DNA from: Escherichia coli
GTDB lineage: Bacteria > Pseudomonadota > Gammaproteobacteria > Enterobacterales > Enterobacteriaceae
DNA length: 64,000 nucleotides
NCBI RefSeq assembly: GCF_024298765.1
Contig: NZ_CP101210.1
Strand: one strand, 5' to 3'
Shown: in pieces, positions 9,808-33,534 of the stretch
Position numbering within the stretch: position 1 is the stretch's first letter
How the letters are laid out: the number at the start of each line of letters is the position of its first letter
Translations under genes and position numbers: made by a program
Notes under the pieces: model-generated
Seen by the model: the letters and a program-made list of their open reading frames with translations, nothing else
The model's database searches: none
Told to the model about the DNA's origin: nothing

Positions 9808-11003
<1,196 letters not shown>

Positions 11004-11149: not shown

Positions 11150-11598
11150 CAGAGTCAGCGCAGTCCCTGCTCCGGCAGTCAGTGGCAGGCGGCGTACTGA
11201 AGCAAACCATTATCGATACCGGCATCGGCGATACCATCGGCATGCTGATGTCACACGGCAATATTTCTCCCTACATCATGGCGTGGTTGATAACCGTGCT
11301 GATCCGTCTGGCAACGGGTCAGGGCGTGGTCTCAGCCATGACGGCGGCGGGGATTATTAGCGCAGCAATCCTCGACCCGGCAACCGGTCAACTGGTGGGC
11401 GTCGACCCGGCGTTGCTGGTGCTGGCAACAGCGGCTGGCTCCAACACGCTGACCCATATCAACGATGCTTCGTTCTGGCTGTTCAAAGGCTACTTTGATC
11501 TGTCGGTGAAGGATACGCTGAAAACCTGGGGTCTGCTGGAGCTGGTAAACTCCGTGGTTGGCCTGATAATCGTGTTGATCATCAGCATGATTGCATAA
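11150..11598 (+). pseudogene. C-terminal fragment (about 150 aa) of a GntP-family (gluconate/organic acid:H+) permease; 5' part missing
   Basis: Only the 3' part of track ORF 10732..11598 looks real: ...[57 protein letters not shown]...[24 protein letters not shown] aligns with the GntT/GntP C-terminus as I recall it. The 5' part of that ORF is antisense IS5. The 5' boundary is approximate. Confidence 0.7.
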
Positions 11599-11605
11599 CG
11601 TTGAT

Positions 11606-11640
11606 ACCGCTCTGGCCCACAGCGCCAGAGCGGTTTTCCA
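11606..11640 (+). terminator. Rho-independent terminator after the GntP fragment
   Basis: accgctctggc / gccagagcggt stem (11606-11616 / 11624-11634), 7-nt loop, then tttcca. Confidence 0.55.
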
Positions 11641-11647
11641 TCCTGCC

Positions 11648-12346
11648 TCAACAATCCTCAATAATCAGATATACCGCCTTCACCGGACCATGCACCCCAA
11701 CCACCTTGATAAGCTCAATATCCGCCGTCGAGCTGGGTCCACTGATGATATTAATGCACGATGGCATACGCTCACCGGCCTGTGCTTTCTGATGCAGTTT
11801 TTCTGCCAGCTGCGCCACGCGCGGCAGGATGGTGCTTTTACGCAGCACGAAAATAGAGGACTCCGGCAACAGGCTCAGGGAGCGCCCGCGCTCCGGTGCG
11901 GAAAACAGCACCACGCCGCCGGACTCGGTCAGGCCATATTCGGCATACACCACGCCGACTTTCGCCTGCTCGGCCTGGGTAATATTTTCGCTACCACGCG
12001 CCGGATCCCAGACCACGGCGTTGCATTCCTGCTGCAAGCGTTCGGTGATGCCCAGCTCCACCAGCCGGCTGTCGCCGCTCAGCACCACCGGCTGCTGACC
12101 CAATTCTTCGCACAGGCGCAGTGCCGCGTCTGCGGCCTGGTCCTCGCTGGTCAGTTCGCAGCGGGCCAGCATCACTTCGCTGGCAAACTGGATAAACGCA
12201 GAGCAGCGCTGCTCGGGGCTAAGCTCGGTCAGGCGCTCGTTGGCATAGTTGTTAACCGGTGCGGCATCCGCTTGCGGTTCGAAGCGCAGCGGGCGACCCA
12301 GCGCCTGGGCGATGGTGTTTAAAAACGCGGTACGGTTATCCATTCT
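11648..12346 (-). CDS. ykgG: LutC/YkgG lactate-utilisation protein C
   Basis: Start taken at MDNRTAFLNTIAQALG (internal Met of track ORF 11648..12490), overlapping the ykgF stop. C-terminus ...INIISGPSSTADIELIKVVGVHGPVKAVYLIIEDC as in K-12 YkgG. Confidence 0.85.
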   Translation of the reverse strand, partial: RMDNRTAFLNTIAQALGRPLRFEPQADAAPVNNYANERLTELSPEQRCSAFIQFASEVMLARCELTSEDQAADAALRLCEELGQQPVVLSGDSRLVELGITERLQQECNAVVWDPARGSENITQAEQAKVGVVYAEYGLTESGGVVLFSAPERGRSLSLLPESSIFVLRKSTILPRVAQLAEKLHQKAQAGERMPSCINIISGPSSTADIELIKVVGVHGPVKAVYLIIEDC

Positions 12347-13763
12347 TTTTCTCCTGCGCCTGATGTTTCTTAAACCAGCTGCGGAAGCTCTCGCCGTCAG
12401 CATCAGGCAGATCGCGCGCCTCCATCCAGTCACCAATCGCGCCAACCTTGAGCGGGGTTTTGCCGCCATTGAGAAACCAGCTCGCCGCATGCGCGCCCGC
12501 CATCATCCCGACTTTCCACAGCCCCGGATGGCTATTGGCATAGGCGAACATCTTGATCGCCCGTCGCTCGGCTTTCGGCGTAATGCCCTCCTCGGCCATC
12601 ACCCGGCGATGACGCAGGATCAGTTTTGACAACGGAATACGCACCGGGCAGACGCTGTCACAAGCCGTGCACAAAGAACAGGCGTACGGCAGGTCTTTAA
12701 AATCTTTATAGCCGCCGAGCAGCGGAGAAATCACCGCGCCGATAGGGCCGGGATAGATAGAGCCATAGCCGTGCCCGCCGATGTGGCGGTACGCCGGACA
12801 GGTGTTCATACAGGCTCCGCAGCGGATGCAGCGCAGCACATCGCGAAACTCTGAGCCCAGCACCTGCGAGCGACCGTTATCGACAATCACCAGATGGAAC
12901 TCTTCCGGTCCGTCAACGTTGTCCGCCTCACGCGGGCCGGTCAGCCAGGTGTTGTAGCCCGTCAGACGTGCGCCCACGGCGCTGCGCGCCAGCATGGTAA
13001 TCAGCACATCCACCTCGGCAAAGGTCGGCGCGATACGCTCCATGCCCATCACCGCAATGTGCGTTTTCGGTAGCGTGGTGCACATGCGCGCGTTGCCTTC
13101 GTTGGTCACCAGACACACCGAGCCGGTTTCCGCCACGGCAAAGTTACAGCCAGTAATACCGATTTCGGCACTGAGGAAATCCTCGCGGATCTTCTGACGA
13201 ATGAACAAGGTCATAGCTTCCGGGGTTTCCGGGCCGTCGTACCCCAGACGTTCGTTCAGCACGCGGCGGATCTGGTAGCGATCTTTATGAATCGCCGGAA
13301 CCACGACGTGCGAAGGCGGATCCTGATCCAACTGCAGGATATATTCCCCGAGATCGGTTTCGATCACCTGGATTCCGGCATCCTGCAACACATGGTTGAC
13401 GCCGATTTCTTCGGTCACCATCGACTTGGACTTCACCACCTTCTGCGCATTTTTACTCTGCGCGACCTGCAAAATGTAGCGAGTGGCATCTTCTTTGGTT
13501 TTGGCGAAATAGACGTGTCCGCCGTTTTCCGTCACTTTCTCGGAGAGTTGGTACAGGTAAGTGTCGAGGTTGCTCAGAACGTGATCGCGGATCTGGCTGG
13601 CACGATCGCGCCATTCTTCCCAGTGGCCTAACTCATCGACCATTTTTTGCCGATTCGCGCCGATACGCTCCTGCGCATTAGCCACGGCTTTGCGCATAAT
13701 CGGATCTTCTATCTGCTGACGAATACGCAGTTTAAATTCTACATCGCTGGTTTTTATCGACAT
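12336..13763 (-). CDS. ykgF: LutB/YkgF iron-sulfur lactate-utilisation protein B
   Basis: 475 aa with two ferredoxin-type cysteine clusters (CIRCGACMNTCP; CSLCTACDSVCP). Confidence 0.9.
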   Translation of the reverse strand: MSIKTSDVEFKLRIRQQIEDPIMRKAVANAQERIGANRQKMVDELGHWEEWRDRASQIRDHVLSNLDTYLYQLSEKVTENGGHVYFAKTKEDATRYILQVAQSKNAQKVVKSKSMVTEEIGVNHVLQDAGIQVIETDLGEYILQLDQDPPSHVVVPAIHKDRYQIRRVLNERLGYDGPETPEAMTLFIRQKIREDFLSAEIGITGCNFAVAETGSVCLVTNEGNARMCTTLPKTHIAVMGMERIAPTFAEVDVLITMLARSAVGARLTGYNTWLTGPREADNVDGPEEFHLVIVDNGRSQVLGSEFRDVLRCIRCGACMNTCPAYRHIGGHGYGSIYPGPIGAVISPLLGGYKDFKDLPYACSLCTACDSVCPVRIPLSKLILRHRRVMAEEGITPKAERRAIKMFAYANSHPGLWKVGMMAGAHAASWFLNGGKTPLKVGAIGDWMEARDLPDADGESFRSWFKKHQAQEKKNG

Positions 13764-13773
13764 CTCTTTCCCC

Positions 13774-14493
13774 TCAGCGGCTCATCAGCACTTCAGCAAT
13801 ATGCATCACTTTGACCGGCTGGCCTTCCCGTTGCAGTCGACCGCCAATGTTCAGCAGGCAGCTAACGTCTGCGCCAATCAAAAATTCCGGCTTTGCGTCC
13901 ATCAGATGTAATACTTTCTCTTTCACCATCTCACCGGATATCTCGGCCATCTTGACCGAGAACGTCCCGCCAAAGCCGCAACAGGTATCCTGATCGGCAA
14001 ACGTCAACAGCTCCAGTCCGCGCACGTTTTTCAGCAGCGTAAGCGGCTCTTCCTTCACTCCCAGTTTGCGGGTCAGGCTACAGGAAGGATGATACACAGC
14101 GCGGCCCTGCAGGCTGGCACCAACGTCCACCACACCCAGTTTGTTGACGATAAAGGAGGTGAGATCCTGCATACGCGCGGAAACTTTCTCAGCACGCAGC
14201 GCCCATTCCGGTTCATCGGCCAGATACGTCGGGTAGCTTTTAACCGCGTAGGTGCAGGAGCCCGCCGGGGAGATAATCGGATCGTCGTTGTCTTCCAGCG
14301 CGGCGATCAGGTTTTTCATCCCGGGGATCGCCTCTTTGATGTAACCGCTGTTGATGGCTGGCTGACCGCAACACCCTTGCTTCTCGGGGAAATTAACGCG
14401 ACAACCCAGTTTTTCCAGCAGCAATACGGAGTCTCGTGCCATCCGTGATTTCAGTGCGTCACCAATACAGGTGACAAAGAAATTTACATTCAC
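13774..14493 (-). CDS. ykgE: LutA/YkgE cysteine-rich (CCG-domain) lactate-utilisation protein A
   Basis: 239 aa, MNVNFFVTCIGDAL..., CCG motifs (QGCCGQP, DTCCGFGG). Order ykgE-F-G as in K-12. Confidence 0.9.
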   Translation of the reverse strand: MNVNFFVTCIGDALKSRMARDSVLLLEKLGCRVNFPEKQGCCGQPAINSGYIKEAIPGMKNLIAALEDNDDPIISPAGSCTYAVKSYPTYLADEPEWALRAEKVSARMQDLTSFIVNKLGVVDVGASLQGRAVYHPSCSLTRKLGVKEEPLTLLKNVRGLELLTFADQDTCCGFGGTFSVKMAEISGEMVKEKVLHLMDAKPEFLIGADVSCLLNIGGRLQREGQPVKVMHIAEVLMSR

Positions 14494-14567
14494 AATAACT
14501 ACTCCATTGCTTCATTTCTGTTTATTGCGCTTGATATCGCGATATCAAACAAATGTTCATTCGTATT

Positions 14568-16265
14568 TCATGCCCAGTTTTTATGTTTGCTGGTTTTACC
14601 AATACCTGGATTCATAGTGTTGGTCGGATCATTTTCCTGATAAAAACGTGCCAAATTTTCCTGCGCTTTATACAGATGGCCGACATTGTGTTCCGCCGGA
14701 TATTGCGCTCCGCGTTGGCGCAGTAATTCCAGCATCTGTTCTTTTAACGCGTGGGCATCTACGCCTTTTTTAACGATATAATCCTGATGGAATACATGGC
14801 ACATAAAATGGCCGTAATAGAGTTTATGCACCAACTGACTGTCAATTTCCGCCGGTAAATGCTCATACCATTCGGTATCATTGCGGCGTAATGCAATATC
14901 CAGCGCGAGAATATCCTCAACCTCGTCAGAATGAACGGCCTGATAACGAATGGCAGCACCCGCGGCGGCAAAACGATGCAGAAACGCCTTACTGCCCTCT
15001 TCCGCGGTACAGGTAAAGAACGCGCCCTCGGCCGATTTAAAATAGTCCGTTAACCATGCCTGGGCTTCGGCCACACCCTCACCGGACATTTTCAACATCA
15101 GATGGTGTTCATAGTTATCGCGCCAGGTCTTCATCCGCGCCGGGAGATGGCTCGGGAACAGATGGCTAAAAGCCTGCATCGCGCGGTCGGTAAAGTGCGG
15201 GCGAAAGATCTTCACCTTCTCAAGTATGGCCTCGGTACGCCCCTTCAGGTTGAAGAAGAACGGCATTTTGTCCGTGCCAAGTTTGTCGATCATCAGGAAG
15301 GTATCTTTGCTGTATTTCTCTGCAATATCATAGATATCGCGGTGCATATACTCCCCAGCAACCGGCAGGTTTGTAAAATTCGCCAGGATGTGGCGGCGAA
15401 TCTCAGTCAGGACATCAGTCTGATTGGTACCGATATAAAAGACCTGCTGGTTCTTCTCGGCTTCAAAGGTATCCAGACGTACGGCAAACACCGCTAACTT
15501 GCCCGCACAGCCAGAGGATTCAAACAGGCGATCCGGGTCAGCGTTGTAACGTGCTGGCGTGTCGGCATTGATGTCCCGCACGCGGCTAACATAGTCGTGA
15601 TCGTGCGCGTGACGCCCGTCATGGTTGACGAGCACGGCTTCAATCGCATTGTTATCCAGCCGGGCAAGGATTTGCTCTGGCGTCTGACCTAGCTCAATGC
15701 CGAGGTGATTGACCAGCTGCAAGCGTCCCTGTTCATCAATACGGGCAAACAGCGACATCTCGGTATAAGCCGGGCCACGCTGGACCAGAGAACCGCCGGA
15801 GTTATTACAGATACCGCCGATAACCGACGCGCCGATGCACGAAGAGCCAATCACCGAATGCGGCTCACGGCCAAACGGCTTCAGCGCCTTTTCCAGCGAA
15901 TACAGCGTGGTGCCCGGATAAGCCAGCACCTGCTTACCCTCATCCAGCACATGCAGACTGTCCAGCCGCAGCGTGCTGATAATGACGATCTCGCGGTCGT
16001 AATCATTACCATTGGGCGTCGAACCCTCAGTCAGGCCAGTGTTCGACGCCTGCATCAGGATTATTTTATCGGCCTCAACGCAGGCGCTAAGGACTTTCCA
16101 GAGTTCAAGCAAAGAGCCGGGGATAACCACCGCCAGAGCATCACCCTGACCCGAGCGAAAACCCTTACGGTAACGCGCAGTTTTTGACGGTTCGGTGAGG
16201 ATATGAGCAGGGCCAACCAATTGGGTAAGAGTTGTCAAAAAGGTCTTATTATCAGTATGTTTCAT
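14568..16265 (-). CDS. FAD-dependent quinone-linked D-lactate dehydrogenase, Dld paralogue
   Basis: Long collinear similarity to K-12 Dld as I recall it (TARYRKGFRSGQGDALAVV.PGSLLELW..., NTGLTEGSTPNGNDYDR, HSVIGSSCIGASVIGGICNNSGGSLVQRGPAYTEMSLFARI). Start uncertain: M17 at 16265 chosen, the track start is 16313. Confidence 0.85.
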   Translation of the reverse strand: MKHTDNKTFLTTLTQLVGPAHILTEPSKTARYRKGFRSGQGDALAVVIPGSLLELWKVLSACVEADKIILMQASNTGLTEGSTPNGNDYDREIVIISTLRLDSLHVLDEGKQVLAYPGTTLYSLEKALKPFGREPHSVIGSSCIGASVIGGICNNSGGSLVQRGPAYTEMSLFARIDEQGRLQLVNHLGIELGQTPEQILARLDNNAIEAVLVNHDGRHAHDHDYVSRVRDINADTPARYNADPDRLFESSGCAGKLAVFAVRLDTFEAEKNQQVFYIGTNQTDVLTEIRRHILANFTNLPVAGEYMHRDIYDIAEKYSKDTFLMIDKLGTDKMPFFFNLKGRTEAILEKVKIFRPHFTDRAMQAFSHLFPSHLPARMKTWRDNYEHHLMLKMSGEGVAEAQAWLTDYFKSAEGAFFTCTAEEGSKAFLHRFAAAGAAIRYQAVHSDEVEDILALDIALRRNDTEWYEHLPAEIDSQLVHKLYYGHFMCHVFHQDYIVKKGVDAHALKEQMLELLRQRGAQYPAEHNVGHLYKAQENLARFYQENDPTNTMNPGIGKTSKHKNWA

Positions 16266-16700
16266 GGAGGGCGGCTCTCCGCTCCTTATATCAGGGCCAG
16301 TGAAAATGGCCATAAGTTCATTTGTACGACAAAACAGAATATTCCCTCAATCAATATCCACATGCAATACCCCATTTTATTTCTTTCGGCACCGCTCACA
16401 TTTTTTAATGAAATTACCACTACCACATAATTCATACTCCGTTCTTTTACTGGATGCCAAAACGCTTATTTCATTTATTGCAAAGACCATTTCATACCTA
16501 TTAATGATTAACTCTAATGGGTATTATTATATTTAGTGGTTATTCATATTTAATAAAAAAATAACATTATTTATACAATTATTAACCTTTGTAACTTTAT
16601 TTCACTGAAGCGATTCAGTTTGCATTTTTTATTTTATTATTAAGGTAGCCTCCTTCCCCCTAAATATAGTTAAGTCTAAAAAAGTAAATCGGGAATTGTA

Positions 16701-18254
16701 ATGCACGAATATTTAATGTTTGCTCTGGCACTCTCTCCTTTGCTGCTGATGGTATTTTTAATACTGAAATTAAAAATGCCCATCCATTATTCCGTACTGA
16801 TCTCTTTGGTATTCACCGCTGCACTATCGGCAATATTCTGGGAAATGCCCACACAGAATCTGAAAGCCGCGATAGGCTATGGTGCACTGAAGGGACTATG
16901 GCCGATCGTAATTGTTATCCTCGGCGCTATCTTCAGTTATAACGTCATGCAGGCGACCAAAGCGCTGGATATTCTGCGCGATATTCTCGCCAGCATTAGC
17001 GAAGATAAGCGTATTCAGGTGCTGCTGATTTCATGGTGTTTTGGTGGATTTCTTGAAGCCGCTGCGGGCTATGGCACGGCGGTCGCTATTCCGATCGGTA
17101 TTCTCATTGCGCTGGGATTCAACCCGTTGAAGGCGGCGATTGCTTCCCTCGTAGCAAATACCGTTCCGACCGCATTTGGCGCGGTTGGAATCCCGGTTTC
17201 TATTCTGGCAGAGCAGGTTAATCTGCCGGTTTATACCTTAGGCGGAACCATTATTTTGCAGCTCGCGCTGTTTAATATCCTGCTGCCGTTTGTGATTGTC
17301 TGCATTATTGGCGGTGGCCTGAAAGCCATTCGCGGCGTATTTCTGATCACGTTGATTTGCGGCATTTCCACGCTGGTTCCGCAATATTTTGTCGCCATCC
17401 ATCTTGGCGCGGAATTACCCGCCTTTGCCGGTAGCCTGGTCAGCCTGTTTGCCGTGGCGATGGTCAGTCGCCTGCGCAAAGGGAAAACCGATCCCGAGTG
17501 GCGCATTGAGGTCAGCCATACCCGCGAAACCACGCCGCGCTCGGCAAAAGTGTTGTTCCGGGTTGGCTCTATTTATCTGTTTATTTTTGTGTTTATCCTG
17601 CTGTGTTCGCCGCTGTTCCCGACAATAAAAGGCGCGGCATCCCAACTGGCTTCGGTGCTGCATTTCACGTTGGCTGACGGCAAAACGATGGCGCTGAAAG
17701 TTGAATGGGCGACCACACCGGGGATGCTGATCATCTTTGCGACCATTATCGGCGGTTTTATTCAGGGAGCGTCCGCACGTGGGATGCTGGAAGTATTTAT
17801 CAAAACGATTTTCCAGCTTAAAAACTCTATCGTCGCAATTATGGCGATCGTCGCGCTGGCCACGGTGATGGATCTCAGCGGGATTATCTCCACGCTGGCC
17901 CAGTCGATTGTCGATCTGACCGGCAGCTCGTACGTCTTCCTCGCCCCGGTGATTGGCGCGCTGGGCACGTTCGTGACCGGCAGCGATACCAACTCGAACA
18001 TTCTGTTCGGCAAGCTGCAAACCATTGCCGCCAGCAAGTTACATATCGATCCTAACTGGCTGGCGGCGGCCAATACCTCTGGCGCTACGGGGGGGAAAAT
18101 GATTTCGCCGCAAAGCATCGCCATCGCAGTTTCTGCCACCAAAATGGACGGTCAGGCCAACCAGATTATGTCTGGCACCATGAAATACTGCTGCGCCTAC
18201 ATTGTGATCCTCGGCCTGAAAGTCGGTCTGTTTTATTACTGGTTTATGGCGTAA
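16701..18254 (+). CDS. L-lactate/glycolate permease family (LctP) transporter
   Basis: 517 aa polytopic membrane protein with LctP-like motifs (GALKGLWPI, FGGFLEAAAGYGTAVAI, TGSDTNSNILFG). Divergent from the dld-like gene across an AT-rich 390-bp region. Confidence 0.85.
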   Translation: MHEYLMFALALSPLLLMVFLILKLKMPIHYSVLISLVFTAALSAIFWEMPTQNLKAAIGYGALKGLWPIVIVILGAIFSYNVMQATKALDILRDILASISEDKRIQVLLISWCFGGFLEAAAGYGTAVAIPIGILIALGFNPLKAAIASLVANTVPTAFGAVGIPVSILAEQVNLPVYTLGGTIILQLALFNILLPFVIVCIIGGGLKAIRGVFLITLICGISTLVPQYFVAIHLGAELPAFAGSLVSLFAVAMVSRLRKGKTDPEWRIEVSHTRETTPRSAKVLFRVGSIYLFIFVFILLCSPLFPTIKGAASQLASVLHFTLADGKTMALKVEWATTPGMLIIFATIIGGFIQGASARGMLEVFIKTIFQLKNSIVAIMAIVALATVMDLSGIISTLAQSIVDLTGSSYVFLAPVIGALGTFVTGSDTNSNILFGKLQTIAASKLHIDPNWLAAANTSGATGGKMISPQSIAIAVSATKMDGQANQIMSGTMKYCCAYIVILGLKVGLFYYWFMA

Positions 18255-18511
18255 ACCATTGTCAACCCCGTCAAATTCGCGGCAATCGAATTTGACGACA
18301 TAGTGACCAAAAAGGTTTACACCGCCCCGGGAACGGAACGAGGCAACAGACTTTACGATTTGTCGGCGCTGACTAAAATAGCGCCGATGTTTCAAATCGA
18401 GGATTGTTGTTATGTTGTTCTGGAAAAAGATGGTGAAGAAGTTCGACGCCTTTTCCGGTGATGCTGCCAACTTACTGATTTAGTGTATGATGGTGTTTTT
18501 GAGGTGCTCCA

Positions 18512-18787
18512 GTGGCTTCTGTTTCTATCAGCTGTCCCTCCTGTTCAGCTACTGACGGGGTGGTGCGTAACGGCAAAAGCACCGCCGGACATCAGCGCTA
18601 TCTCTGCTCTCACTGCCGTAAAACATGGCAACTGCAGTTCACTTACACCGCTTCTCAACCCGGTACGCACCAGAAAATCATTGATATGGCCATGAATGGC
18701 GTTGGATGCCGGGCAACCGCCCGCATTATGGGCGTTGGCCTCAACACGATTTTACGTCACTTAAAAAACTCAGGCCGCAGTCGGTAA
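18512..18787 (+). CDS. insA: IS1 InsA
   Basis: 91 aa [40 protein letters not shown]...; A6C slippery run at 18763-18769. Confidence 0.95.
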
Positions 18788-19209
18788 CCTCGCGCATACA
18801 GCCGGGCAGTGACGTCATCGTCTGCGCGGAAATGGACGAACAGTGGGGCTATGTCGGGGCTAAATCGCGCCAGCGCTGGCTGTTTTACGCGTATGACAGG
18901 CTCCGGAAGACGGTTGTTGCGCACGTATTCGGTGAACGCACTATGGCGACGCTGGGGCGTCTTATGAGCCTGCTGTCACCCTTTGACGTGGTGATATGGA
19001 TGACGGATGGCTGGCCGCTGTATGAATCCCGCCTGAAGGGAAAGCTGCACGTAATCAGCAAGCGATATACGCAGCGAATTGAGCGGCATAACCTGAATCT
19101 GAGGCAGCACCTGGCACGGCTGGGACGGAAGTCGCTGTCGTTCTCAAAATCGGTGGAGCTGCATGACAAAGTCATCGGGCATTATCTGAACATAAAACAC
19201 TATCAATAA
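18706..19209 (+). CDS. insB: IS1 InsB' frame (expressed as InsAB' by -1 frameshift)
   Basis: 167-aa frame overlapping insA, recognised IS1 sequence. Confidence 0.9.
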
Positions 19210-19688
19210 GTTGGAGTCATTACCAATGGTGGTAACCGTATAGTCCCAAATAAAGATAAAAATGCTTCATTCTTACTCACCATTCCATTTGCTAAGTCTG
19301 TTATTGATGAAATATTGAGTAAAGAAAATCTGTCATGGTGCTCGAAAAATACTTTGCCAATATTGCATGCTTTTAGTATTAGAGCTTTAACCTCCTAATT
19401 GCTGAAGTAATGATACAAGCTACAGTATTGGTGACGAATCTATAGACAAGGAGATAAAAACCAAATATCAGAATTATTTTTGATAGTGCTGGTAAAGAAG
19501 CGGTGTTTGATATCAGCATGTTTATCGGAAAAAAGCTTACCTGGAGCTTTGAAAAATTGCAAAGCAGGGCCTGACAATGAAGGCCCTAATACTGTACTGA
19601 ATGTTAACTCAGTACCAAATTACAAGGAAAAGTATTTTTTCTGGTAAGATTCTGTATACATAATAAATCACCTTATAGTTACAATAGG

Positions 19689-20170
19689 TCAAAAACCGCT
19701 GTAGCCAAAGTTACGCTGGCCTGATGCTTTAGTGTCGAGCTTCGTCAAATAATCCAGACGTACCAATAAGCGCTGGTACTGCTCTGGGAAATCAGGCTCG
19801 TTAATATCCAGGATGTAACGTCCATTAGCAGGGAAATGAACTAATCCCTGGTGATCTTCCAGTTCCAACCCTAAGGCACTGTACCAGGCTCCGGTAATTA
19901 ACCCTCTCAGTGTGTCAGAGCGCTCATAGTTTCCCAGGTGGTAATAGGCGTCTTTGTTAAAAAAAGGCAGACGTGATAATGACATTTAAAGGACTGCGTA
20001 TATTCTTTCGCCCAGATAATACAAACCGCCGTTGCGTAGGTGCGTTTGCCTTGTTGTTTTTTACTGTGTTGATCTGCATTAATTTTCGCATTCAGCGAGT
20101 TACGGAAACGAGATATCTCTCCGGGGATCAGGTTAGGGAAACAGGTAATGATATCCCCGTTGTCAATCAC
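19689..20170 (-). pseudogene. YagK/YfjJ-family (inovirus Gp2-type) gene, frameshifted
   Basis: Two overlapping track ORFs (19907..20170, 19689..19985) read as one protein: ...CIIWAKEYTQSFKCHYHVCLFL / NKDAYYHLGNYERSDTLRGLITGAWYSALGLE.... This parallels the intact paralogue at 35283..35846 (YYWVMEYTPDKGLHIHFIGYLDG). The frame change falls in an A7/T7 run at 19959-19965. Confidence 0.6.
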
Positions 20171-20260
20171 AGGAGGGTAATGGAGATCCCCCCGTATTGC
20201 TGTTATTCTGGAAGTGTTTTTAATATTCGTATTGATAGTTCTCAGAGATTGGATTTGCCC

Positions 20261-21166
20261 CTATATTTCCAGACACCTGTTATCACTTAACCCATTACTG
20301 GCCCGCTGCCGTAGATATTCCCGTGGCGAGCGATAACCCAGTGCACTATGCGGGTGCCATTCGTTATAATGCTCGAACGCCTCTGCAAGGTTCTTTGCTG
20401 CCGTTAACCCGTCTGGTTTAGGCATGATACTGATGTAGTCACGCTTTATCGTTTTCACGAAGCTCTCTGCTATGCCGTTACTCTCCGGACTCTGCACCGC
20501 CGTGTTCTTCGGTTCAAGCCCTAATATCCGGGCAAACTGCCGTGTTTCATTAGCCCGGTAGCATGAACCATTATCCGTCAGCCACTCTACTGGAGACGCC
20601 GGAAGCTCGTTGCCGAAGCGGCGTTCCACCGCTCCTGGCATGACGTCCTGTACTGTTTCACTGTCGAAGCCGCCCGTAGTGACTGCCCAGTGCAGTGCCT
20701 CACGGTCACAGCAGTCCAGCGCGAACGTGACTCGCAGTTTTTCTCCGTTATCACAGCGGAACTCGAACCCGTCAGAGCACCATCGTTGATTGCTTTCTTT
20801 CACGGCCACTTTGCCAGTATGTGCCCGTTTCGATGGCGGTACAGCGGTTTTTCGCTCAAGCAACAGCGCATTCTGGCGCATGATCCGGTAAACACGTTTG
20901 GCATTGATCGCAGGCATACCATCAAGTTCGGCCTGTCTGCGAAGCAGCGCCCATACCCGACGATAACCATACGTGGGCAGCTCTCCGATAACATGGTGTA
21001 TACGGAGAAGCACATCCGTATCATCTGAGTGACGGCTGCGGCGACCATCTTTCCAGTCATCGGTTCGTCTGAGAATTACGTGCAACTGCGCACGCGACAC
21101 CCGGAGACAACGGCTGACTAAGCTTACTCCCCATCCCCGGGCAATAAGGGCGCGTGCGCTATCCAC
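20261..21166 (-). CDS. insD: IS2 OrfB (InsD) integrase-like transposase
   Basis: 301 aa, recognised IS2 InsD sequence ([29 protein letters not shown]...). Confidence 0.95.
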
Positions 21167-21489
21167 TTTTTTGCACGCCCGTATTCAACGGCTTCTTTAA
21201 GGAGTTCATTTTCCATCGTTTTTTTGCCGAGCAGGCGCTGGAGTTCTTTAATCTGCTTTATGGCAGCAGCAAGTTCAGAGGCAGGAACGATCTGTTCTCC
21301 TGCGGCCACAGCAGTAAGACTTCCCTCCTGGTATTGCTTGCGCCAGAGAAATAACTGGCTGGCTGCCACACCGTGTTGCCGGGCAACAAGGGAGACCGTC
21401 ATTCCCGGTTCAAAGCTCTGCTGAACAATAGCGATCTTTTCCTGTGTAGTACGCCGTCTGCGTTTCTCCGGTCCTAAGACATCAATCAT
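21124..21489 (-). CDS. insC: IS2 OrfA (InsC)
   Basis: 121 aa from [52 protein letters not shown].... Confidence 0.9.
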
Positions 21490-21533: not shown

Positions 21534-23450
<1,917 letters not shown>

Positions 23451-23463
23451 TACCGCAGGAGGC

Positions 23464-24918
23464 ATGATGGAGAGCATTAATAATCAAGTGCAGTCGGTAC
23501 GCCAGTTGCTGGCCATTCCCCAACTGGCCATCCCAAGCTATCAGCGACCTTACCGCTGGGGCTCCAAGAATATCTCGGATCTCTTTACCGATTTGGCAAC
23601 CCATCAGGACAAGAGCGCCTACCGGCTGGGCTCGGTGGTGTTTCATCAGCACACCGATAGTGAGCAGGGCGAAATGCTTGATATCGTCGATGGTCAGCAA
23701 CGCACCCTGACCCTGATGTTGACCGTCAAGGCGCTGATCGAGGTGCTGGATAACGAAAATCGCAGTGGCAAAGAGAAGAGTATCCGGTTTCAACGTCAGG
23801 ATCTGCGTGAGCAATTGCAGGTCTTGCGTGGACCTATCGATGCGTTTATGCAGCGCCAGCGCTTCCCCAGCCGGGATTCGGAGTTCAACCTCAGACGTAA
23901 CTATCTGGAGTTGCGTCGGCTGGTGGCCCGCCCTGAGTTTGACGAGCAGCAAATTGACTTTCTGCTCAACCGCTGTCAGGTGGTCTGCTTTGTACTGCAG
24001 GATATCTCGGAGGCGTTCCAGTTCTTCGATTCGCAAAATGCCCGGGGGCGCGATCTGGCTCCTCACGATCTGCTCAAGGCATTTCACCTGCGCGAGTTTG
24101 CCGGTCATGAGGCCAATCTCAAGGCCGAGGCGGTCGCCCATTGGGAGCGCCTGCCAAGCGACGAGCTGGCCAATCTGTTCGCCCTCTATCTCTATCGGGT
24201 ACGCCAGTGGGCCGAGGGCAAGTCGGCCCGCTACTTTGGCAAGGGGGAGGTGGATCTCTTCAAGGGGGTCAACCTAGATCGGGTAGGGCATTATCCTTAC
24301 GTGGAGTCGCTGCGCATCGCCCACCACTTTGTCGATGAGTACAACAGCCAGTACCAGCGCAAGATTGACGGCCAGTACATGACGTTTCCCTTTCATCTCG
24401 ACCAGATGATCATCAATGGTCGGCGCTTTTTCGAGATGGCCGAGTACTACCAGACGCGGGTGGCCGCCATCGTGGCCGAGGAGTCTGATTCCGGCAAGGC
24501 GCAATCTGCCACCCTGCTCGGCGAAACGCTGACACCGATGGCCAGCAAGGTGCTATCGACCCTGGGCAGCTACGAGCGTCGCCACCGCACCGGGGATCGT
24601 TATGTGCGGGCCATGTTCGACTGCGCCCTGATCTTCTATATCGACAAGTTCGGCAGCCAAGGGCTGTCACTGGCCATCGAGAAGTGCTTTATCTGGGCCT
24701 ATCGCTGCCGCATCCGCCAGCAGGTAGTGCAGTTGGCAACCATGGATAACTATGTGCTGGAGCACAATCTGATCCGTGCCATTCGTGATGCTCGTCTGCC
24801 GGGAGATCTGCACGGCTTCCCTTTGCCTAGCATGAGCAGTCGAGAGAACAAGAACAATCGCAATGGTGCCGAAGATGAGCTGGTCGGGCTGTTTCGGGAG
24901 ATGAAATATTATGAATGA
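23464..24918 (+). CDS. DUF262 (ParB/GmrS-like NTPase) domain protein without a recognisable nuclease domain
   Basis: 484 aa. [69 protein letters not shown] at 23456-23461. 8-nt overlap with the next gene. Confidence 0.8.
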
Positions 24919-26953
24919 TGCAGGCGTTCGCCCCTTTTCCATTCGTGCACTGCTTGAAGATCGCGCCCGCTATCTGGTGCCCATGTACCAGCGCAACTAT
25001 GCCTGGGGTGAGGGAGAGATCACCCAGCTGCTGCAGGATGTGCTGGATTATCAGCAAAAATTGGTCAGTGGTAAGGGGCCGCAAACCTACTATATCGGCA
25101 CCCTGGTGGTGTTTGCCCGGGACGATGGCAGTTTCGAGGTAATCGATGGCCAGCAGCGCTTTACTACCCTCTCTCTGCTGGCCAATTGGCTCAAACATCA
25201 CGCGATAGATTCGGTGGATATGAGCTGGTATCAGACCATCAACCTCGCTTTTGAGAGTCGCCCGATATCGAGCCATACCTTCGAGCGCTTATGGCAGGGG
25301 GTTGCCCCCGACGATTTGCGGGGGAGTACCTTCAATGAAGGTTTGGTGAACGGTTTTGAGCTGATTGGCAAGGCAATGGCGGAGCTTGGTTTGGTAGGGG
25401 CTAAACTGACGGCCTTTTGCGACTACCTCTTCAAGCATGTGCAGATCTCTCGTATCGAAGTACCCAAGGATACCGATCTCAATCACTTCTTCGAGGCGAT
25501 GAACAATCGCGGCGAGCAGTTGGAAAAGCATGAAGTGATCAAGGCGCGGCTGATGGAGACGCTGAACCAGATACCCGAGGAAGAGCATCGTCGCCAAAGT
25601 ATTCATATCCTGACCCGGGTATGGGATGCCTGCGCCAATATGGAGCGCTATATCCAGTACGGCTTTACCCCGCAAGAGCGCCACCGTCTGTTTGGTGAGA
25701 GCGACTGGGGTCAGTTTGTGCCCCGTGATTTTGCCCATCTGCTTGATCTGCTAGGATCCCCAAACACGGCCGACGCTGCCGATAAAAGCCGTGCAGCTGC
25801 CGGTAGCCAAGGGCGCACCTTGTTGGCCATTTTGCAGGATGACAAGCTTGATGGTGAGCAGACGGTGGAGGAGGAGAGCGCAGGCTCCGAGCGCTTTAAC
25901 AGCGTCATCAACTTCTCCAACTTCTTGCTCCATGTGCTGCGACTCGTGAGCCGCGACCCGGGTAATACGGAGGGGGTGCCGCTTGATGATAAACAACTGG
26001 TCGATCAGTTTGAGCTGCGAGTGATAAGGCAACCGGATCCAGTAGCGGCAGTTCAGCGTTTTATCTATGGCCTGTTAAAGAGCAAGTATCTGTTTGATCA
26101 GTTCATCATCAAGCGCGAGTTTGCCGATGGCAAGGATAGTTGGAGTCTGAAGCGGCTGCACTGGTATTCGGAAAAGAGCGTCAGTTACATCAATACCTTT
26201 GACAAGGATGAAAATGAGAATGGTTTCTCTGGTGTTAACCGGCGGGTCCTGATGTTGCTGTCGGCGTTTCATGTGTCGACCCCGACCCTGGTTTACAAAC
26301 ATTGGCTGAATGGTGCACTGAGATATCTGTTCGACAATTGTCACCCTGATCAACCGGTGGATGCCGGGGCTTATCTGTCCTATCTGGAGAGTCAGGCTCG
26401 CCGCTTTGTCTTCCAGCGCTTTTTAGCGCCTGGTGAAGGGGCTTCCTATTACCAGATGCTCTACCTTGATAACGCCCTGTTGCCCGCCATCAATGTGGAT
26501 GAGAGTTGGCACAAGGTGATTACATCCAAACTTCGCTTCGGTCATATCGAGAACAACTTTGTCTTCAACTTCCTCGACTATCTGCTGTGGGTACGAGATC
26601 GGAATAGCGACAAAGTTGCTGGCTCCTTTGAGTTCACTTTCCGCAGCTCGGTGGAGCACTTCTCACCCCAGCATCCGATGGATGGCTATAAACCGGTTGA
26701 GCAGAGTGCACTCCATTCGTTTGGCAACCTTTGCCTTATCAGCCACAGCAAGAACTCGCGCTTGAGTAACTTCCAGCCGCAACAGAAGCAGGAGCACTTT
26801 GAAGCAAGCCTTGCCAATAACCAGACTGATAGTCTTAAATTGCTTGCTATGATTCGGCTGATGAAAGATAAAGGTCGTTGGCTGGAAGATGAGATAGCTG
26901 TGCATCAACAAGATATGTTGCAGGTCTTACTATCCAATCAAATTCAGCAATAA
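24911..26953 (+). CDS. DUF262-DUF1524 fusion (GmrSD/BrxU/SspE-like type IV restriction enzyme family)
   Basis: 680 aa. N-terminal [59 protein letters not shown]-terminal His-Me-like [10 protein letters not shown]...[17 protein letters not shown]. Confidence 0.85.
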
Positions 26954-27023
26954 CGGATTGAATCTGTTGGTGATGCTGCCAACTTACTGATTTAGTGTAT
27001 GATGGTGTTTTTGAGGTGCTCCA

Positions 27024-27299
27024 GTGGCTTCTGTTTCTATCAGCTGTCCCTCCTGTTCAGCTACTGACGGGGTGGTGCGTAACGGCAAAAGCACTGCCGG
27101 ACATCAGCGCTATCTCTGCTCTCATTGCCGTAAAACATGGCAACTACAGTTCACTTACACCGCCTCTCAGCCCGGTACGCACCAGAAAATCATTGATATG
27201 GCCATGAATGGCGTTGGATGCCGGGCAACCGCCCGCATTATGGGCGTTGGCCTCAACACGATTTTCCGCCATTTAAAAAACTCAGGCCGCAGTCGGTAA
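27024..27299 (+). CDS. insA: IS1 InsA (copy B)
   Basis: 91 aa, near-identical to copy A. Confidence 0.95.
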
Positions 27300-27721
27300 C
27301 CTCGCGCATACAGCCGGGCAGTGACGTCATCGTCTGCGCTGAAATGGACGAACAGTGGGGCTACGTAGGTGCTAAATCACGTCAGCGCTGGCTGTTTTAC
27401 GCGTATGACAGGATACGGAGGACGGTTGTGGCGCACGTCTTCGGTGAACGCACTCTGGCCACACTGGAGCGTCTTCTGAGCCTGCTGTCGGCCTTTGAGG
27501 TCGTGGTATGGATGACGGATGGCTGGCCGCTTTATGAATCACGCCTGAAGGGAGAACTGCACGTTATCAGCAAGCGATTTACGCAGCGCATTGAGCAGCA
27601 TAACCTGAATCTGAGGCAGCATCTGGCAAGGCTGGGCAGGAAGTCACTGTCGTTCTCAAAATCGGTGGAGCTGCATGACAAAGTCATCGGGCATTATCTG
27701 AACATAAAACACTATCAGTAA
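27218..27721 (+). CDS. insB: IS1 InsB' frame (copy B)
   Basis: 167-aa frame, IS1 isoform. Confidence 0.9.
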
Positions 27722-27736
27722 GTTGGAGTCATTACC

Positions 27737-29173: not shown

Positions 29174-32113
29174 ATGAGTAATTTTAATTTTCTAACAGAC
29201 ATCAGCCCTGAACTCGCTCAATTTGGTAAAAGTGCCGAGCTGTATTACCATGATGATAAGCAGGTAGCACTAGTGAAACTTAGGTGTTTTACTGAAGTAG
29301 TCGTTGGGGAAATTTATTCACGTTTATCGCTAACCCCACCTGTTCGTGATGATTTATATAATCGACTGCGCAGCTACGAATTCAAGGACGTTGTCAGTGA
29401 TAAGGGAATCTGGGCCAAATTAGATGTATTGCGACATAAAGGTAACAAAGCCGCCCACTCTAGCAATGGTTCAGACGAGATTTCCCTCAATGAAACACTC
29501 TGGTTAATCAAAGAAGCTTATTTAGTCGCCCGTTGGTATGCTCAAGCTATTCTCAATAAGCCTATCACTCCGCCAGAGTTTGTTGATCCGGTAAAACCTA
29601 TCGATCATACATCTCGCTTAGAAGCAGAGTTAGAACGGCAACGTCAAGAACTCAATAAACGAGAGGCTGAATTAAAGACCCAGCTTGCTGATAATAGTGA
29701 TAAATATCAACAACAGACGAGTGAGCTAATAGCTCAACTAGACGAAAAAAACGACACACTTTCCAATGTAAAAAAAGAGCAAGCACTATTACAGATTGAA
29801 CTTGAACAAAAACAAAAAGATCTAGTCGCTTCACAACAAGCCTTCTTTGATTACAGGACGCGTGAAGAGTTTAAACAAGCTAGTATTTCATCAGCTTCAA
29901 GCTTTGATCTTGATATGGAAGTGACGCGCCGAAATATTGATATATTTGATTGCTTTGAAGGAGTAAGTTTAACTAAAGGTCAAAACCAAATAGTTAAGCA
30001 AATAAATGAGTTTCTAACCGATACCAAACAAAACGTATTTTTACTTAATGGTTATGCAGGTACAGGTAAAACATTTATAACTAAAGGAATTACTCAGTAC
30101 CTAGAAAGAATTGGTCGTGAATTCGCTATTATGGCCCCGACGGGGAAAGCCGCGAAAGTGATATCAGACAAAACAATGCAACCTGCCAGCACTATTCACC
30201 GCGTGATATACAATTACGACAACGTGAAAGAGTACAAAGTTGACGGTGTGGAAGGGTCTGAAACTTATCGTTGCTATGCTGACCTTAAAGTCAATGTAGA
30301 TACTGCCGAAGCTGTTTATATAATTGATGAAGCGTCAATGGTTTCTGACAGATATTCCGATGGTGAGTTTTTTCGTTTTGGGAGCGGATATTTATTAAAA
30401 GACTTGCTCAAGTACATAAATATTGACCACAACGATCATAATAAGAAAGTTATTTTTATTGGTGATAATGCACAGTTGCCACCTGTTGGAATGAATACGT
30501 CACCAGCGCTAGATGCCAGTTACCTTAAAGAAAATTATCAAGTCGCTGTGGCTTCAGGGCACTTGACTGAAGTTGTTCGTCAAAAAGGTGATAGTGGTGT
30601 TTTGAACAATGCTGCCATGTTGCGTGACGGTTTAGAGCAAAATCTTTTCAATAAACTGAAATTTGAAGTTAATGATCATGATGTATTTAATTTGTCCTCG
30701 GAAAATCTACTTAGCACTTATCTAGACTCATGTGATAGAAAAGTTAGCCGTACAGGAGAAAGTATTATTATTGCTTCTTCAAACCGACAAGTAGCTGAGT
30801 ATAACCGTTTGGTTAGAGAGTACTTCTTTACTGGTCAACAGCAAATGGTCGCGGGAGATAAAGTCATTTCGGTAGCAAATCACTATCGAGCAGACGCTTG
30901 TATTACCAATGGTGAATTTGGAATGATCAAGGAAGTACTATCTCCTCATTCTGAGTTGATTAGTGTTGACATTAGCGTCAAAGGTGACACTGGTGACATG
31001 GTTAAGCGAAAAGTAAATCTGAGTTTTAGGGATGTGATTCTAGGCTTTCGCAACGACTACGGTGAACCATTCTTCTTTGAAGCCAAAATTGTAGAAAACC
31101 TACTTTACAATGATCAGCCGACCTTATCGTCAGATGAGCACAAAGCACTCTATGTTCACTTTTTAAATCGACACCCAGAACTGAGACGTAAAGGTAATGA
31201 ACAAAAGCTTAGAATTGCATTATTGCAAGATCCTTATTTCAATGCTTTTAAACTTAAGTTTGGTTATTCCATTACTGGACACAAAGCACAGGGTAGCGAA
31301 TGGAAAACTGTTTTCTTACAGTGTCAAACACACCAAAAAGCCTTAACTAAAGATTACTTCCGCTGGTTATACACCGCTATAACGAGAACTTCTGGCATCC
31401 TGTATGTAATGAATCCACCTCAGTTGCGCTTAGGAGATGGAATGAAAATAGCAGGAGCGTACCAACCCAAAGCAGTAAACCTAGACAATTCTGCTCCTGA
31501 AGGCGTTGAGGTTGTGCGACCAAGTACCGAAGCAACGAACTCAGTAGCCACAGCGAAGTTTGATTTTCAGACTGACATCCCGCAACTTAAAAAGCTATAC
31601 CAACTTGTTGATGCATGTATTGAAGGTACAGGGATTACTGTAGTGGATGTCCTTCATTATAACTATCAAGATCGTTACATCTTGCAGCGCGGGAATGAGC
31701 AGGCTTCGATAAGTTTCAATTACAAGGGTAACTGGAAAGTGTCTGGCGTAAAGAGCATTACTCAAGATGGGTTCGATGTTGAACTCATGGCTTTGCTTGG
31801 TCAATTAGAAGGTACTTTGCTCGATGTACCTGAGCCTTCAAAGGATACTCAGTTCCATTTTTCAGAGCCATTCTTAGAAGAGTTTTATCTAAATGTAATG
31901 GATCAAATCAACAGTGTTGGAGCTGATATAAGCAAAATTGAATCTCGTTCATTTTGTGAAAGATATGCATTTGTTAAAGGCAATGAGTTGGCGGTAATTG
32001 AGTTTTGGTACAACAAGTCTAGCCAGTTTACTAAAGTTCAACCTATGCCTCAGCTTAGTAATTCCACAAGGCTCATTGACGAAATAATATGTCAAATAGG
32101 TGTGCTTCTATGA
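29174..32113 (+). CDS. Multidomain SF1B (RecD/Dda/TraA-like) helicase: DUF4145-like N-domain, coiled coil, helicase core, two tandem C-terminal repeats
   Basis: 979 aa.
- N-terminus ...KLDVLRHKGNKAAHS (DUF4145-like).
- aa ~145-235 heptad-rich (LEAELERQRQELNKREAELKTQL...).
- Walker A GYAGTGKT (nt 30050-30073), APTGKAA, Walker B YIIDEASM, IGDNAQLPPVG, TEVVRQ, C-terminal GYSITGHKAQGSEW and YTAITRT.
- aa 794-891 and 892-979 are related repeats. Confidence 0.85.
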   Translation: MSNFNFLTDISPELAQFGKSAELYYHDDKQVALVKLRCFTEVVVGEIYSRLSLTPPVRDDLYNRLRSYEFKDVVSDKGIWAKLDVLRHKGNKAAHSSNGSDEISLNETLWLIKEAYLVARWYAQAILNKPITPPEFVDPVKPIDHTSRLEAELERQRQELNKREAELKTQLADNSDKYQQQTSELIAQLDEKNDTLSNVKKEQALLQIELEQKQKDLVASQQAFFDYRTREEFKQASISSASSFDLDMEVTRRNIDIFDCFEGVSLTKGQNQIVKQINEFLTDTKQNVFLLNGYAGTGKTFITKGITQYLERIGREFAIMAPTGKAAKVISDKTMQPASTIHRVIYNYDNVKEYKVDGVEGSETYRCYADLKVNVDTAEAVYIIDEASMVSDRYSDGEFFRFGSGYLLKDLLKYINIDHNDHNKKVIFIGDNAQLPPVGMNTSPALDASYLKENYQVAVASGHLTEVVRQKGDSGVLNNAAMLRDGLEQNLFNKLKFEVNDHDVFNLSSENLLSTYLDSCDRKVSRTGESIIIASSNRQVAEYNRLVREYFFTGQQQMVAGDKVISVANHYRADACITNGEFGMIKEVLSPHSELISVDISVKGDTGDMVKRKVNLSFRDVILGFRNDYGEPFFFEAKIVENLLYNDQPTLSSDEHKALYVHFLNRHPELRRKGNEQKLRIALLQDPYFNAFKLKFGYSITGHKAQGSEWKTVFLQCQTHQKALTKDYFRWLYTAITRTSGILYVMNPPQLRLGDGMKIAGAYQPKAVNLDNSAPEGVEVVRPSTEATNSVATAKFDFQTDIPQLKKLYQLVDACIEGTGITVVDVLHYNYQDRYILQRGNEQASISFNYKGNWKVSGVKSITQDGFDVELMALLGQLEGTLLDVPEPSKDTQFHFSEPFLEEFYLNVMDQINSVGADISKIESRSFCERYAFVKGNELAVIEFWYNKSSQFTKVQPMPQLSNSTRLIDEIICQIGVLL

Positions 32114-33534
32114 ATGAGCCAGCTAATCGTACAGTAAATAATTTGAGAAAGAGCGGAGACCTGCAAGGGGCTTGGGAGTTTGGTTTTCAAGCGTTGCAGG
32201 CAGCTCCCCAAGATACTTACTTGAAAGGTGCTTTATTTTGGGTGTGTTATGAGTTTCTTAAGCACCAGCTTGAAAATCTAAATAAGCGAGCGAGTTCTTC
32301 AAACAACTATCGTCCTACTGATTTTGAATTTGAGCAAATAGAGAACTTGCTGCAAACCATAGTAAATTTAGATATTGCTACTGGCGGCCTAGAGTACAAA
32401 ATGCTGCTGGTTCAGTTTAAGAAGAGTTTGGAATGGTTTCCAACCTTGATTCACCTTGTGCTTCGACATCAAACTGTACTATTTGATGATGAGGCTAAAA
32501 CACCTTTTCAAGCTGAAAAAGGTGAAGTGCCAAGTTTGATGCTCTCAACAGCACGCCAAGTGGCGAGTGCATGGCTTAGAGCACGAGAGTATTGGCATCT
32601 AGATCTTAACCAAGTGATGGCATTTATTAACCAAACACGCGAGCAAGCCTCTGACACTAAACATATGATGTGGCTTGATTACGACCAAGCGAAGTGCCTT
32701 GTTGTTGCGGGCCAATACGATCAGGCTCGCGAACTCATTCTACCCATTTTAAGAAAGAAGCAAAAAGAGTCTTGGGCTTGGGGAGCGTTGGCTGCTACTT
32801 ATTCAAAACAAGATCAGCGTTTAGCAATGAAGTTTTTTGCTAGGGGAATAGTATCCGCACATGACGTTACTTTTAGTTTACGTTTATTACAGGGAATTAT
32901 TCCTTTATTACTTGCAAATCAACAGCAAGCTGAAGCCTCAATGTGCCTAAAAACGGCTATTGCGGCTTATCAAGCCCATGGGTGGAAGCTAAAGCAAGAG
33001 CTAGAACAGCTATCTATGCAGGCTTGGTATGATTCTGGTGTCGATGAGAAGCAACTGAGTCCTTTTTTAAACTCTATTTCTCACGACGCTTTAAATTACT
33101 TGCATGGGCCGATGGAGAAGGTTGTTGCTATCGTAGAGAATATCCATAAATCCGGTAAAGGCTTTCAAGTATTCGTAAATAAGTCGACATCACTATCAGT
33201 TCGCATGGGGGTTCATAAAGGTAAGCAGAAACCTCAGGCTGGTGACTATGTCGAGCTATCCGTAGCGAGTGTTGATGGAAACAAAGAAGTAGTAGCTTCC
33301 TCATCGTCCAAGCAAGTAGATATGGCTGATGTTTCGTATGTAGAGGGTACGCTTCGAATAGCACCCAAAGGCTTCGGATTTGTCGAGGATACTTTTGTTC
33401 CTCCCTTTGTTATAGGTAATTTAAAAAATGAAACAAAAGTCAGAGCACTCCGTATCATGAGTTGGGACAAATCTAAAGCTCGCCACAACTGGAAAGCGAT
33501 TAAGTTAACGGAACTAAATTTTAATGAAGACTAA
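32110..33534 (+). CDS. Helical-repeat (TPR-like) protein with C-terminal cold-shock/OB-like module; partner of the helicase
   Basis: Start taken at ATG 32110 (MNEPANR), forming an ATGA overlap with the helicase stop; the track start is 32089. The alpha-helical N-terminal 330 aa includes TPR-like segments (DYDQAKCLVVAGQYDQARELILPIL, WAWGALAATYSKQDQRLAMKFFARGI). C-terminus has ...KSGKGFQVFV... and ...LRIAPKGFGFVEDTFVPPFVI... (RNP1-like KGFGF). Confidence 0.75.
   Translation: MNEPANRTVNNLRKSGDLQGAWEFGFQALQAAPQDTYLKGALFWVCYEFLKHQLENLNKRASSSNNYRPTDFEFEQIENLLQTIVNLDIATGGLEYKMLLVQFKKSLEWFPTLIHLVLRHQTVLFDDEAKTPFQAEKGEVPSLMLSTARQVASAWLRAREYWHLDLNQVMAFINQTREQASDTKHMMWLDYDQAKCLVVAGQYDQARELILPILRKKQKESWAWGALAATYSKQDQRLAMKFFARGIVSAHDVTFSLRLLQGIIPLLLANQQQAEASMCLKTAIAAYQAHGWKLKQELEQLSMQAWYDSGVDEKQLSPFLNSISHDALNYLHGPMEKVVAIVENIHKSGKGFQVFVNKSTSLSVRMGVHKGKQKPQAGDYVELSVASVDGNKEVVASSSSKQVDMADVSYVEGTLRIAPKGFGFVEDTFVPPFVIGNLKNETKVRALRIMSWDKSKARHNWKAIKLTELNFNED

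Follow-up and report, generated by a model that had tools for sequence, protein, structure and literature searches.

Two overlapping genes lying on the + strand of a 64,000-nucleotide (nt) stretch of Escherichia coli DNA (contig NZ_CP101210.1; the whole stretch is hereafter called the window) were analysed. We conclude, with a probability of roughly 0.9, that they encode GmrSD-ECOR17, a two-protein type IV modification-dependent restriction enzyme made of GmrS1 and GmrSD2 that falls, within the GmrSD family, in the TgvAB branch. An earlier note on this DNA had recognised a GmrSD-type, modification-dependent type IV module, and this is borne out by the domains of the proteins and by their identity with those of ECOR17. 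The observation is real but already published: the layout, which the same note regarded as less characterised, has since been described for TgvAB in 2024 (PMC11411939, PMC11014532) and for GmrSD-ECOR17 in 2025 (PMC12373910).

The gene pair and its identity with GmrSD-ECOR17

The first gene, gmrS1 (TgvA-like, hereafter open reading frame 1, ORF1), occupies positions 23467-24918 (+) and encodes 483 amino acids (aa), or 484 if the alternative start at 23464 is used. The second, gmrSD2 (TgvB-like, ORF2), occupies 24911-26953 (+) and encodes 680 aa, with a DUF262 nucleoside triphosphatase (NTPase) domain, a helical linker and a DUF1524 His-Me nuclease. Both ORFs were found at the coordinates given before, on the + strand, as was the 8-nt overlap of the ORF2 start with the ORF1 stop, ATGAATGA, read from the sequence at 24911-24918 (+). 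This overlap indicates that translation of the two ORFs would be coupled, and a GGGAG at 24896-24900, 10 nt 5′ of the ORF2 start, is the likely ribosome-binding site of ORF2. The Shine-Dalgarno sequence of gmrS1, AGGAGG (23457-23462, +), is conserved in E. coli MRSN346638; it leaves 1 nt to the first ATG of ORF1 and 4 nt to the second, and it is the second, at 23467, that is used as the start in RefSeq (WP_000443938.1) and in the literature. Over the 3.6 kb that were queried, the window matches the E. coli 2020CK-00188 chromosome with 100% identity.

To compare the pair with that of ECOR17, the sequences of GmrS1 and GmrSD2 were rebuilt from the Clustal alignments of Supplementary Data 5 of PMC12373910. 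Counted from its second ATG, ORF1 is identical to GmrS1 of E. coli ECOR17 (APT18_07330) at 483 of 483 residues, and ORF2 to GmrSD2 (APT18_07335) at 676 of 680 (99.4%), the differences being D134Y, E158D, R348C and N352D. The published nuclease-dead mutant E582A/H583A (PMC12373910) maps to the VEHFSPQH motif of ORF2, where the catalytic pair is intact. In the same paper, the accession of ORF1, WP_000443938, is listed in cluster CLS_004, and that of ORF2 of strain CREC-629, WP_000995975, in cluster CLS_003. It is on the near-identity, the intact E582/H583 and the CLS_004 listing that we equate the window pair with the published GmrSD-ECOR17. Gene order and overlap are also the same in both; the strain of the window is 2020CK-00188-like, and the flanks may differ from those of ECOR17.

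The properties of GmrSD-ECOR17 are documented. Both genes are required, neither one protecting alone (Nat Commun 2025, PMC12373910). Under leaky expression, the system restricts T2, T6, and T4 lacking ip2 and ip3, T-even targets whose DNA carries glucosyl-hydroxymethylcytosine (glc-hmC), and hypomodified T4 is not restricted (PMC12373910). Activity needs the His-Me residues E582/H583 of GmrSD2, and is specifically inhibited by Ip3, an internal protein that T4 injects (PMC12373910).

Several points weigh against our reading of the window pair. Four substitutions separate ORF2 from its ECOR17 counterpart, none of them within a known motif. The pair is closely bordered by insertion sequences (IS), with an IS3 end 13 bp upstream and an IS1 starting 15 nt downstream, and in the sole promoter-like match upstream the −10 element overlaps the start codon. 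Residues 257-317 of the structural model of ORF1 are of low confidence. Finally, the hetero-complex proposed below, in which the two DUF262 domains would share the work, is something that we infer.

Domain content and joint action of the two proteins

Pfam searches placed GmrSD_N/DUF262 at residues 12-215 of ORF2 (E 2e-29) and GmrSD_C/DUF1524 at residues 555-671 (E 1.5e-11). In ORF1, GmrSD_N was found at residues 21-208 (E 2e-28), followed by DUF7834 at 220-465 (E 9e-77). These E-values exclude chance as the source of the predicted domains. The DGQQR motif lies at residue 75 of ORF1 (483-aa numbering) and at residue 79 of ORF2, and the VEHFSPQH of ORF2 provides E582 and H583, with N606 and N615 also read from the sequence. 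ORF2 therefore has the full GmrSD-type architecture ascribed to it, with a DUF262, a C-terminal DUF1524 and E582/H583 intact, and the description of the pair as a nuclease-less DUF262 paralogue coupled to a full DUF262-DUF1524 enzyme is borne out. ORF1 had been described as having only the DUF262 part and no nuclease: the second half of this statement stands, but not the first, as DUF7834 fills residues 220-465.

A pair of independent GmrSD enzymes, ORF1 concealing a cryptic DUF1524/HNH or other nuclease, had been named as what would overturn this picture, and ORF1 was searched accordingly. No GmrSD_C was found in it by Pfam (E ≤ 0.1), and in a profile-profile comparison by hhalign the homology between the ORF1 and ORF2 families was confined to DUF262 (residues 9-275 against 8-278). 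A first AlphaFold model of ORF1, based on a shallow alignment (at least 60% identity), was poor, with a predicted local distance difference test score (pLDDT) of 67.6 and values under 50 at residues 182-324. The second, based on a cross-subfamily alignment, had a pLDDT of 75.6, with values of 71-94 at residues 318-483, and was unreliable at residues 257-317. In this second model, ORF1 is all-helical past residue 215, save for a two-residue hairpin in a variable segment, which holds the only strands of that part. Foldseek matches of the model were SspE, DndI, BrxU and generic helical bundles, and a sequence search of the PDB returned weak DUF262 matches only. In 85 sequences from both subfamilies (that of E. 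coli and that of V. cholerae, see below), no conserved His or Asn was found past residue 215 of ORF1; the residues conserved there are W226, E227, R246, W248, P308, F408, Y412, R415 and similar ones. Because none of them is His or Asn, ORF1 has no His-Me finger. Published domain analyses concur, and we conclude that GmrS1 has no nuclease; the existence of a concealed one is, in our opinion, barely conceivable.

We propose that the two DUF262 NTPase domains would act jointly, probably in a hetero-oligomer, to sense sugar-modified cytosines. Binding or hydrolysis of NTP would then license the single DUF1524 nuclease, that of GmrSD2, to cut the incoming DNA, and the all-helical DUF7834 of GmrS1 would serve as a partner-specific scaffold or interface. 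DUF7834 is present in every GmrS1/TgvA-type partner and in no solved GmrSD-family enzyme. A tentative idea, which we hold to be rather less probable than its contrary, is that this domain may make the enzyme heteromeric, for instance as a docking platform gating the GmrSD2 nuclease, and that it may be the surface recognised by T4 Ip3.

GmrSD2 has by itself the complete architecture of a single-chain GmrSD, and could be autonomous, with GmrS1 a mere accessory, either a decoy or guard against phage inhibitors, or a regulator; anti-inhibitor and regulatory ideas of this kind were raised for TgvA by Vizzarro et al. However, cells with GmrSD2 only are not protected even from T2 or T6, and constructs in which GmrS1 is truncated do not work either (PMC12373910). 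Since GmrSD2 does not protect by itself, the pair does not function like the single-chain enzymes. Moreover, DGQQR mutants of TgvA lose defence, so that the NTPase site of TgvA is needed, and the corresponding motifs of ORF1 (QR, Q26-R27; DGQQR, D75-R79; FxxxN, F187...N191) are invariant across 85 homologues. An autonomous GmrSD2 is therefore improbable. The decoy role that the earlier note had envisaged for ORF1 is unlikely for the same reason, both genes being required in the published systems.

Instead of restricting phage DNA directly, could the pair kill the infected cell, through abortive infection or toxicity? Overexpressing GmrS1 and GmrSD2 together has gross toxicity (PMC12373910), and the growth of TgvAB cultures is inhibited at a high multiplicity of infection (MOI) with some phages. 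Nevertheless, with phage Bas35, the growth of TgvAB cultures resembles that of uninfected controls up to an MOI of 5, and defence depends both on the glucosylation of phage DNA and on the nuclease site. We regard this mode of action as very improbable, and favour direct restriction of modified DNA by the two proteins together.

Distribution, history and expression of the locus

The earlier note had suggested a survey of how often the two-gene form occurs. A homologue from V. vulnificus served as query, and neighbourhoods were collected for 80 loci of different species, none of them V. cholerae. An ORF2 homologue directly followed the ORF1 homologue in 79 of the 80, the remaining locus being interrupted by a contig edge, and the identical 8-nt overlap was present in 56 of these 79 homologous pairs. 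The identities of the first (A) and second (B) proteins to those of the window correlate with r = 0.97, which means that the pair evolves as a unit. We conclude that the two genes form one module, obligate and co-evolving, which occurs in many phyla. Among the 60 loci with full flanks, 30 have the order hsdM (∼820 aa)-hsdS-[pair]-hsdR, and in 29 the pair is free-standing. Where the pair is embedded beside a long (∼820-850 aa) HsdM in Enterobacter, Yersinia and Serratia, a second hsdM, of ∼493 aa, was observed immediately downstream of hsdR, in the opposite orientation; it belongs to the class closest (47% identity) to the truncated hsdM of the window.

This truncated hsdM and the hsdS that follows it form a type I remnant upstream of the pair (21663-22969, +), which was present as described before: hsdM′ (21663-22641) is frameshifted and misses its N-terminus, and hsdS′ (22631-22969) consists of the first 112 codons. 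Next comes an IS3-family remnant (22924-23450, +), made of the C-terminal part of orfB and the right end, and entered in the annotation as a DDE-type integrase pseudogene. Its right end finishes with a tandem duplication of ∼102 nt, at 23246-23349 and 23348-23450, the two copies being 96-98% identical; MRSN346638 has a single copy of this right end at the same junction. The distance of 13 bp, previously given as that from the ribosome-binding site to the IS3 end, in fact runs from the IS3 end (23450) to the first ATG. On the other side of the pair, an IS1 copy (26969-27736, +) starts 15 nt past the gmrSD2 stop, in place of the hhe gene of CREC-629.

The type I remnant had been taken as the trace of a former hsdMS-[type IV]-hsdR locus. 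For E. coli this did not hold. In MRSN346638, the intact counterpart (94% nt identity) has the order hsdM-hsdS-YecA family protein-cold-shock-domain protein-hsdR(::IS903B)-M48 peptidase; beyond the M48 peptidase are found an IS1 remnant, the same junction of IS3 end-TACCGCAGGAGGC-ATGATGGAG, and then the pair, which is thus downstream of hsdR. In addition, the hsdM′ of the window is of a different class, that of ∼500 aa, and is 42% identical to the ∼820-aa HsdM hosting the pair in Aeromonas and other species. The order in MRSN346638 and this 42% identity led us to reject hsdM′/hsdS′ as the wrecked host operon of the pair. Given the gene order in MRSN346638, the E. coli pair once lay downstream of a complete type I operon, not embedded in it, and ∼9 kb have been lost from the window, from the N-terminal part of hsdS to the IS3 remnant. 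The MRSN346638 locus (stretch 9334-19720) has its own cargo: the YecA-family protein and a 594-aa cold-shock-domain protein between hsdS and hsdR, with the M48 metallopeptidase after hsdR. These YecA and cold-shock-domain genes are a different type I-embedded cargo.

At the DNA level, homology to other genera begins at 23451, the first base past the IS3 end, with identities of 95.9% in Aeromonas media, 85.6% in Vogesella and 83.5% in Chitinimonas, and it stops at 26898-26925 (the A. media span is 23451-26898). As the homology begins and stops at these positions, the pair is a discrete module of ∼3.5 kb, recently shared between distant genera. The foreign origin proposed in the earlier note is thereby upheld, and the cross-genus homology, with 95.9% DNA identity to A. 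media, supports it better than composition does. The G+C content (GC) is 0.566 for ORF1 and 0.520 for ORF2, with values at third codon positions (GC3) of 0.715 and 0.621 respectively. The segment had been called richer in G+C than everything around it; this is true in comparison with the downstream 28-33 kb stretch only, which has a clearly lower GC of 0.34-0.44, but not in comparison with the lactate permease gene (16701-18254), whose GC and GC3 equal those of ORF2, nor with the flanking IS elements (GC 0.53-0.56).

How this copy is expressed was also considered. Loss of a native promoter is plausible. When it lies between hsdS and hsdR in a type I operon, the pair is normally without its own promoter. 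The only promoter-like match upstream, at 23439-23468, would be a hybrid promoter borne in part by the IS; with its −10 element over the start codon, it is not credible. It may be, then, that the pair is intact but silent here, a defence relic whose source of transcription was removed by the IS3 insertion. The IS3 end at 23450 abuts the ribosome-binding site, a convincing sigma-70 promoter was not found upstream of the start, and IS1, IS3, IS5 and IS903 have heavily rearranged the island around the pair. On the other hand, both ORFs are intact and nearly invariant: the pair is found at ≥99.5% nt identity in 253 of 5,426 complete E. coli genomes, with the same IS remnant annotated under the match in 24 of the 25 genomes listed. 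Such conservation alongside the IS remnant argues for purifying selection, and against a dead locus. Furthermore, in native ECOR17, transposon insertions in GmrSD2 sensitise the cells to T4 lacking ip2 and ip3 (PMC12373910), which means that expression does occur from a native locus whose GmrS1 is identical. Transcripts could enter by read-through from the IS3 remnant or from hsdM′S′. A silent pair is thus unlikely, albeit somewhat less so than an autonomous GmrSD2.

Other genes of the neighbourhood may be mentioned. In CREC-629 (locus stretch 15741-21476) and other E. coli strains, the pair is directly followed by the 5.7-kb anti-phage gene hhe (DUF4011), a position held in the window by the IS1 and a TOTE module. 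The latter consists of two overlapping genes of low GC (29174-33534, +), encoding 979 and 481 aa, that match over their full length the PADLOC candidate PDC-M16A/B (E 0 and 2e-251). The 979-aa protein has RecD/PIF1-like helicase, DUF4145 and TBP-TOTE domains in Pfam, and the 481-aa protein DUF7017 and S1CSD-TOTE-2, i.e. the two genes are a TOTE conflict system; a plasmid-type stbA lies ahead of it, and IS1 and IS903B flank it. Further upstream (∼11000-18300), a lactate-utilisation cluster (lutABC-like, dld, L-lactate permease) is located within the island, between ISKpn26 and IS1 copies, and adjoins a truncated gluconate permease gene.

Relationship to TgvAB and other GmrSD-type systems

TgvAB, encoded on VPI-2 of V. 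cholerae (VC1767/VC1766), is a two-protein GmrSD-like type IV enzyme, in which TgvA was described as DUF262 only and TgvB as DUF262 plus DUF1524 (PMC11411939, PMC11014532). Both proteins are needed, and the target is glucosylated hmC in T-even phages; defence is lost with a DGQQR mutant of either protein, or with TgvB H571A/N602A (PMC11411939, PMC11014532). TgvAB owes its name to a position between hsdS and hsdR of a type I operon, but this position is not a defining feature: according to its authors, the TgvAB pair is 17 times commoner outside the five-gene type I cluster than inside. Table S5 of PMC11411939 contains an E. coli match to VC1767 (TgvA) whose start is identical to that of ORF1, and a Shigella match to VC1766 (TgvB) that differs from ORF2 at 1 of the 27 residues shown.

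The V. cholerae proteins were compared with those of the window through their first ∼400 residues, as printed in that table. The first 399 residues of TgvA comprise GmrSD_N and DUF7834 (Pfam, E 3e-38). By BLASTP, ORF1 and TgvA are collinear with 25% identity (E 1e-21), as are ORF2 and TgvB with 23% identity (E 2e-21), a comparison that leaves aside the C-terminal third of TgvB. PF03235 and PF25202 were both present in 120 of the 120 best matches to ORF1, and in 119 of the 120 best matches to TgvA, the exception being a truncated entry. Counted as cluster representatives, the E. coli-type subfamily has more than 7,292 members and the V. cholerae type 1,572. From the shared architecture, the collinear homology and the presence of PF03235 and PF25202 in both branches, GmrSD-ECOR17 and TgvAB are best classified as two branches of one family, in which a DUF262+DUF7834 protein stands beside a DUF262+DUF1524 protein. 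TgvAB is nowhere mentioned in PMC12373910, and a literature search for "DUF7834" gave no match.

As a discovery, the window pair is of little value, since cloning, mutagenesis and phage challenge of the same proteins are already in print. The survey adds the obligate co-evolving module, DUF7834 as its signature domain, and the union of GmrSD-ECOR17 and TgvAB in one family; the two having been described separately, joining them is a small new point. The results are also of use for annotation. RefSeq names both products only "DUF262 domain-containing protein", and no NCBIfam model matches ORF1 or ORF2. PADLOC classification, advised in the earlier note, was of partial help: PADLOC-DB 2.0.0 has no TgvAB model, and returned only HEC-06, Orf5 and SspE, each matched in part and at the N-terminus. 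The best match of both ORFs (PADLOC v2.0.0) was HEC-06, the Hma-embedded GmrSD-like protein (E 1e-30 to 1e-33), with a best-scoring stretch of ∼110 positions out of the 558-569 of the profile, none of them beyond the N-terminal DUF262. HEC-06 is likewise a GmrSD-like defence protein, but a single-gene system, and this difference together with the partial match rules out membership of the window pair.

Compared with TgvAB, the window pair has the same gene order and the same composition, A being DUF262 plus DUF7834 and B DUF262 plus DUF1524. The B proteins share an H...N...N His-Me finger, for which ORF2 has H583, N606 and N615, and both systems require their two proteins and target glc-hmC phage DNA, as judged for the E. 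coli pair from the ECOR17 proteins. They differ in that the E. coli subfamily is separate and far larger, with 25% (A) and 23% (B) identity to TgvAB, in that hsdS and hsdR do not flank the E. coli pair, and in that sensitivity to Ip3 is known for the E. coli system only. The single-chain GmrSD enzymes (GmrSD-CT596/Eco94GmrSD) resemble ORF2 by their DUF262-linker-DUF1524 layout, with DGQQR and His-Me motifs, and act on the same class of substrate, glc-hmC DNA. There, however, one polypeptide is enough, whereas GmrSD-ECOR17 requires a second DUF262 protein; the inhibitor is Ip1 (IPI*) instead of Ip3, and outside DGQQR there is almost no sequence similarity. More distant still are BrxU (GmrSD-ECOR21), SspE and DndI, single-chain homodimeric enzymes whose sequence matches to the window pair are limited to ∼90 N-terminal residues: BrxU cuts hypomodified DNA too, and SspE and DndI sense phosphorothioate.

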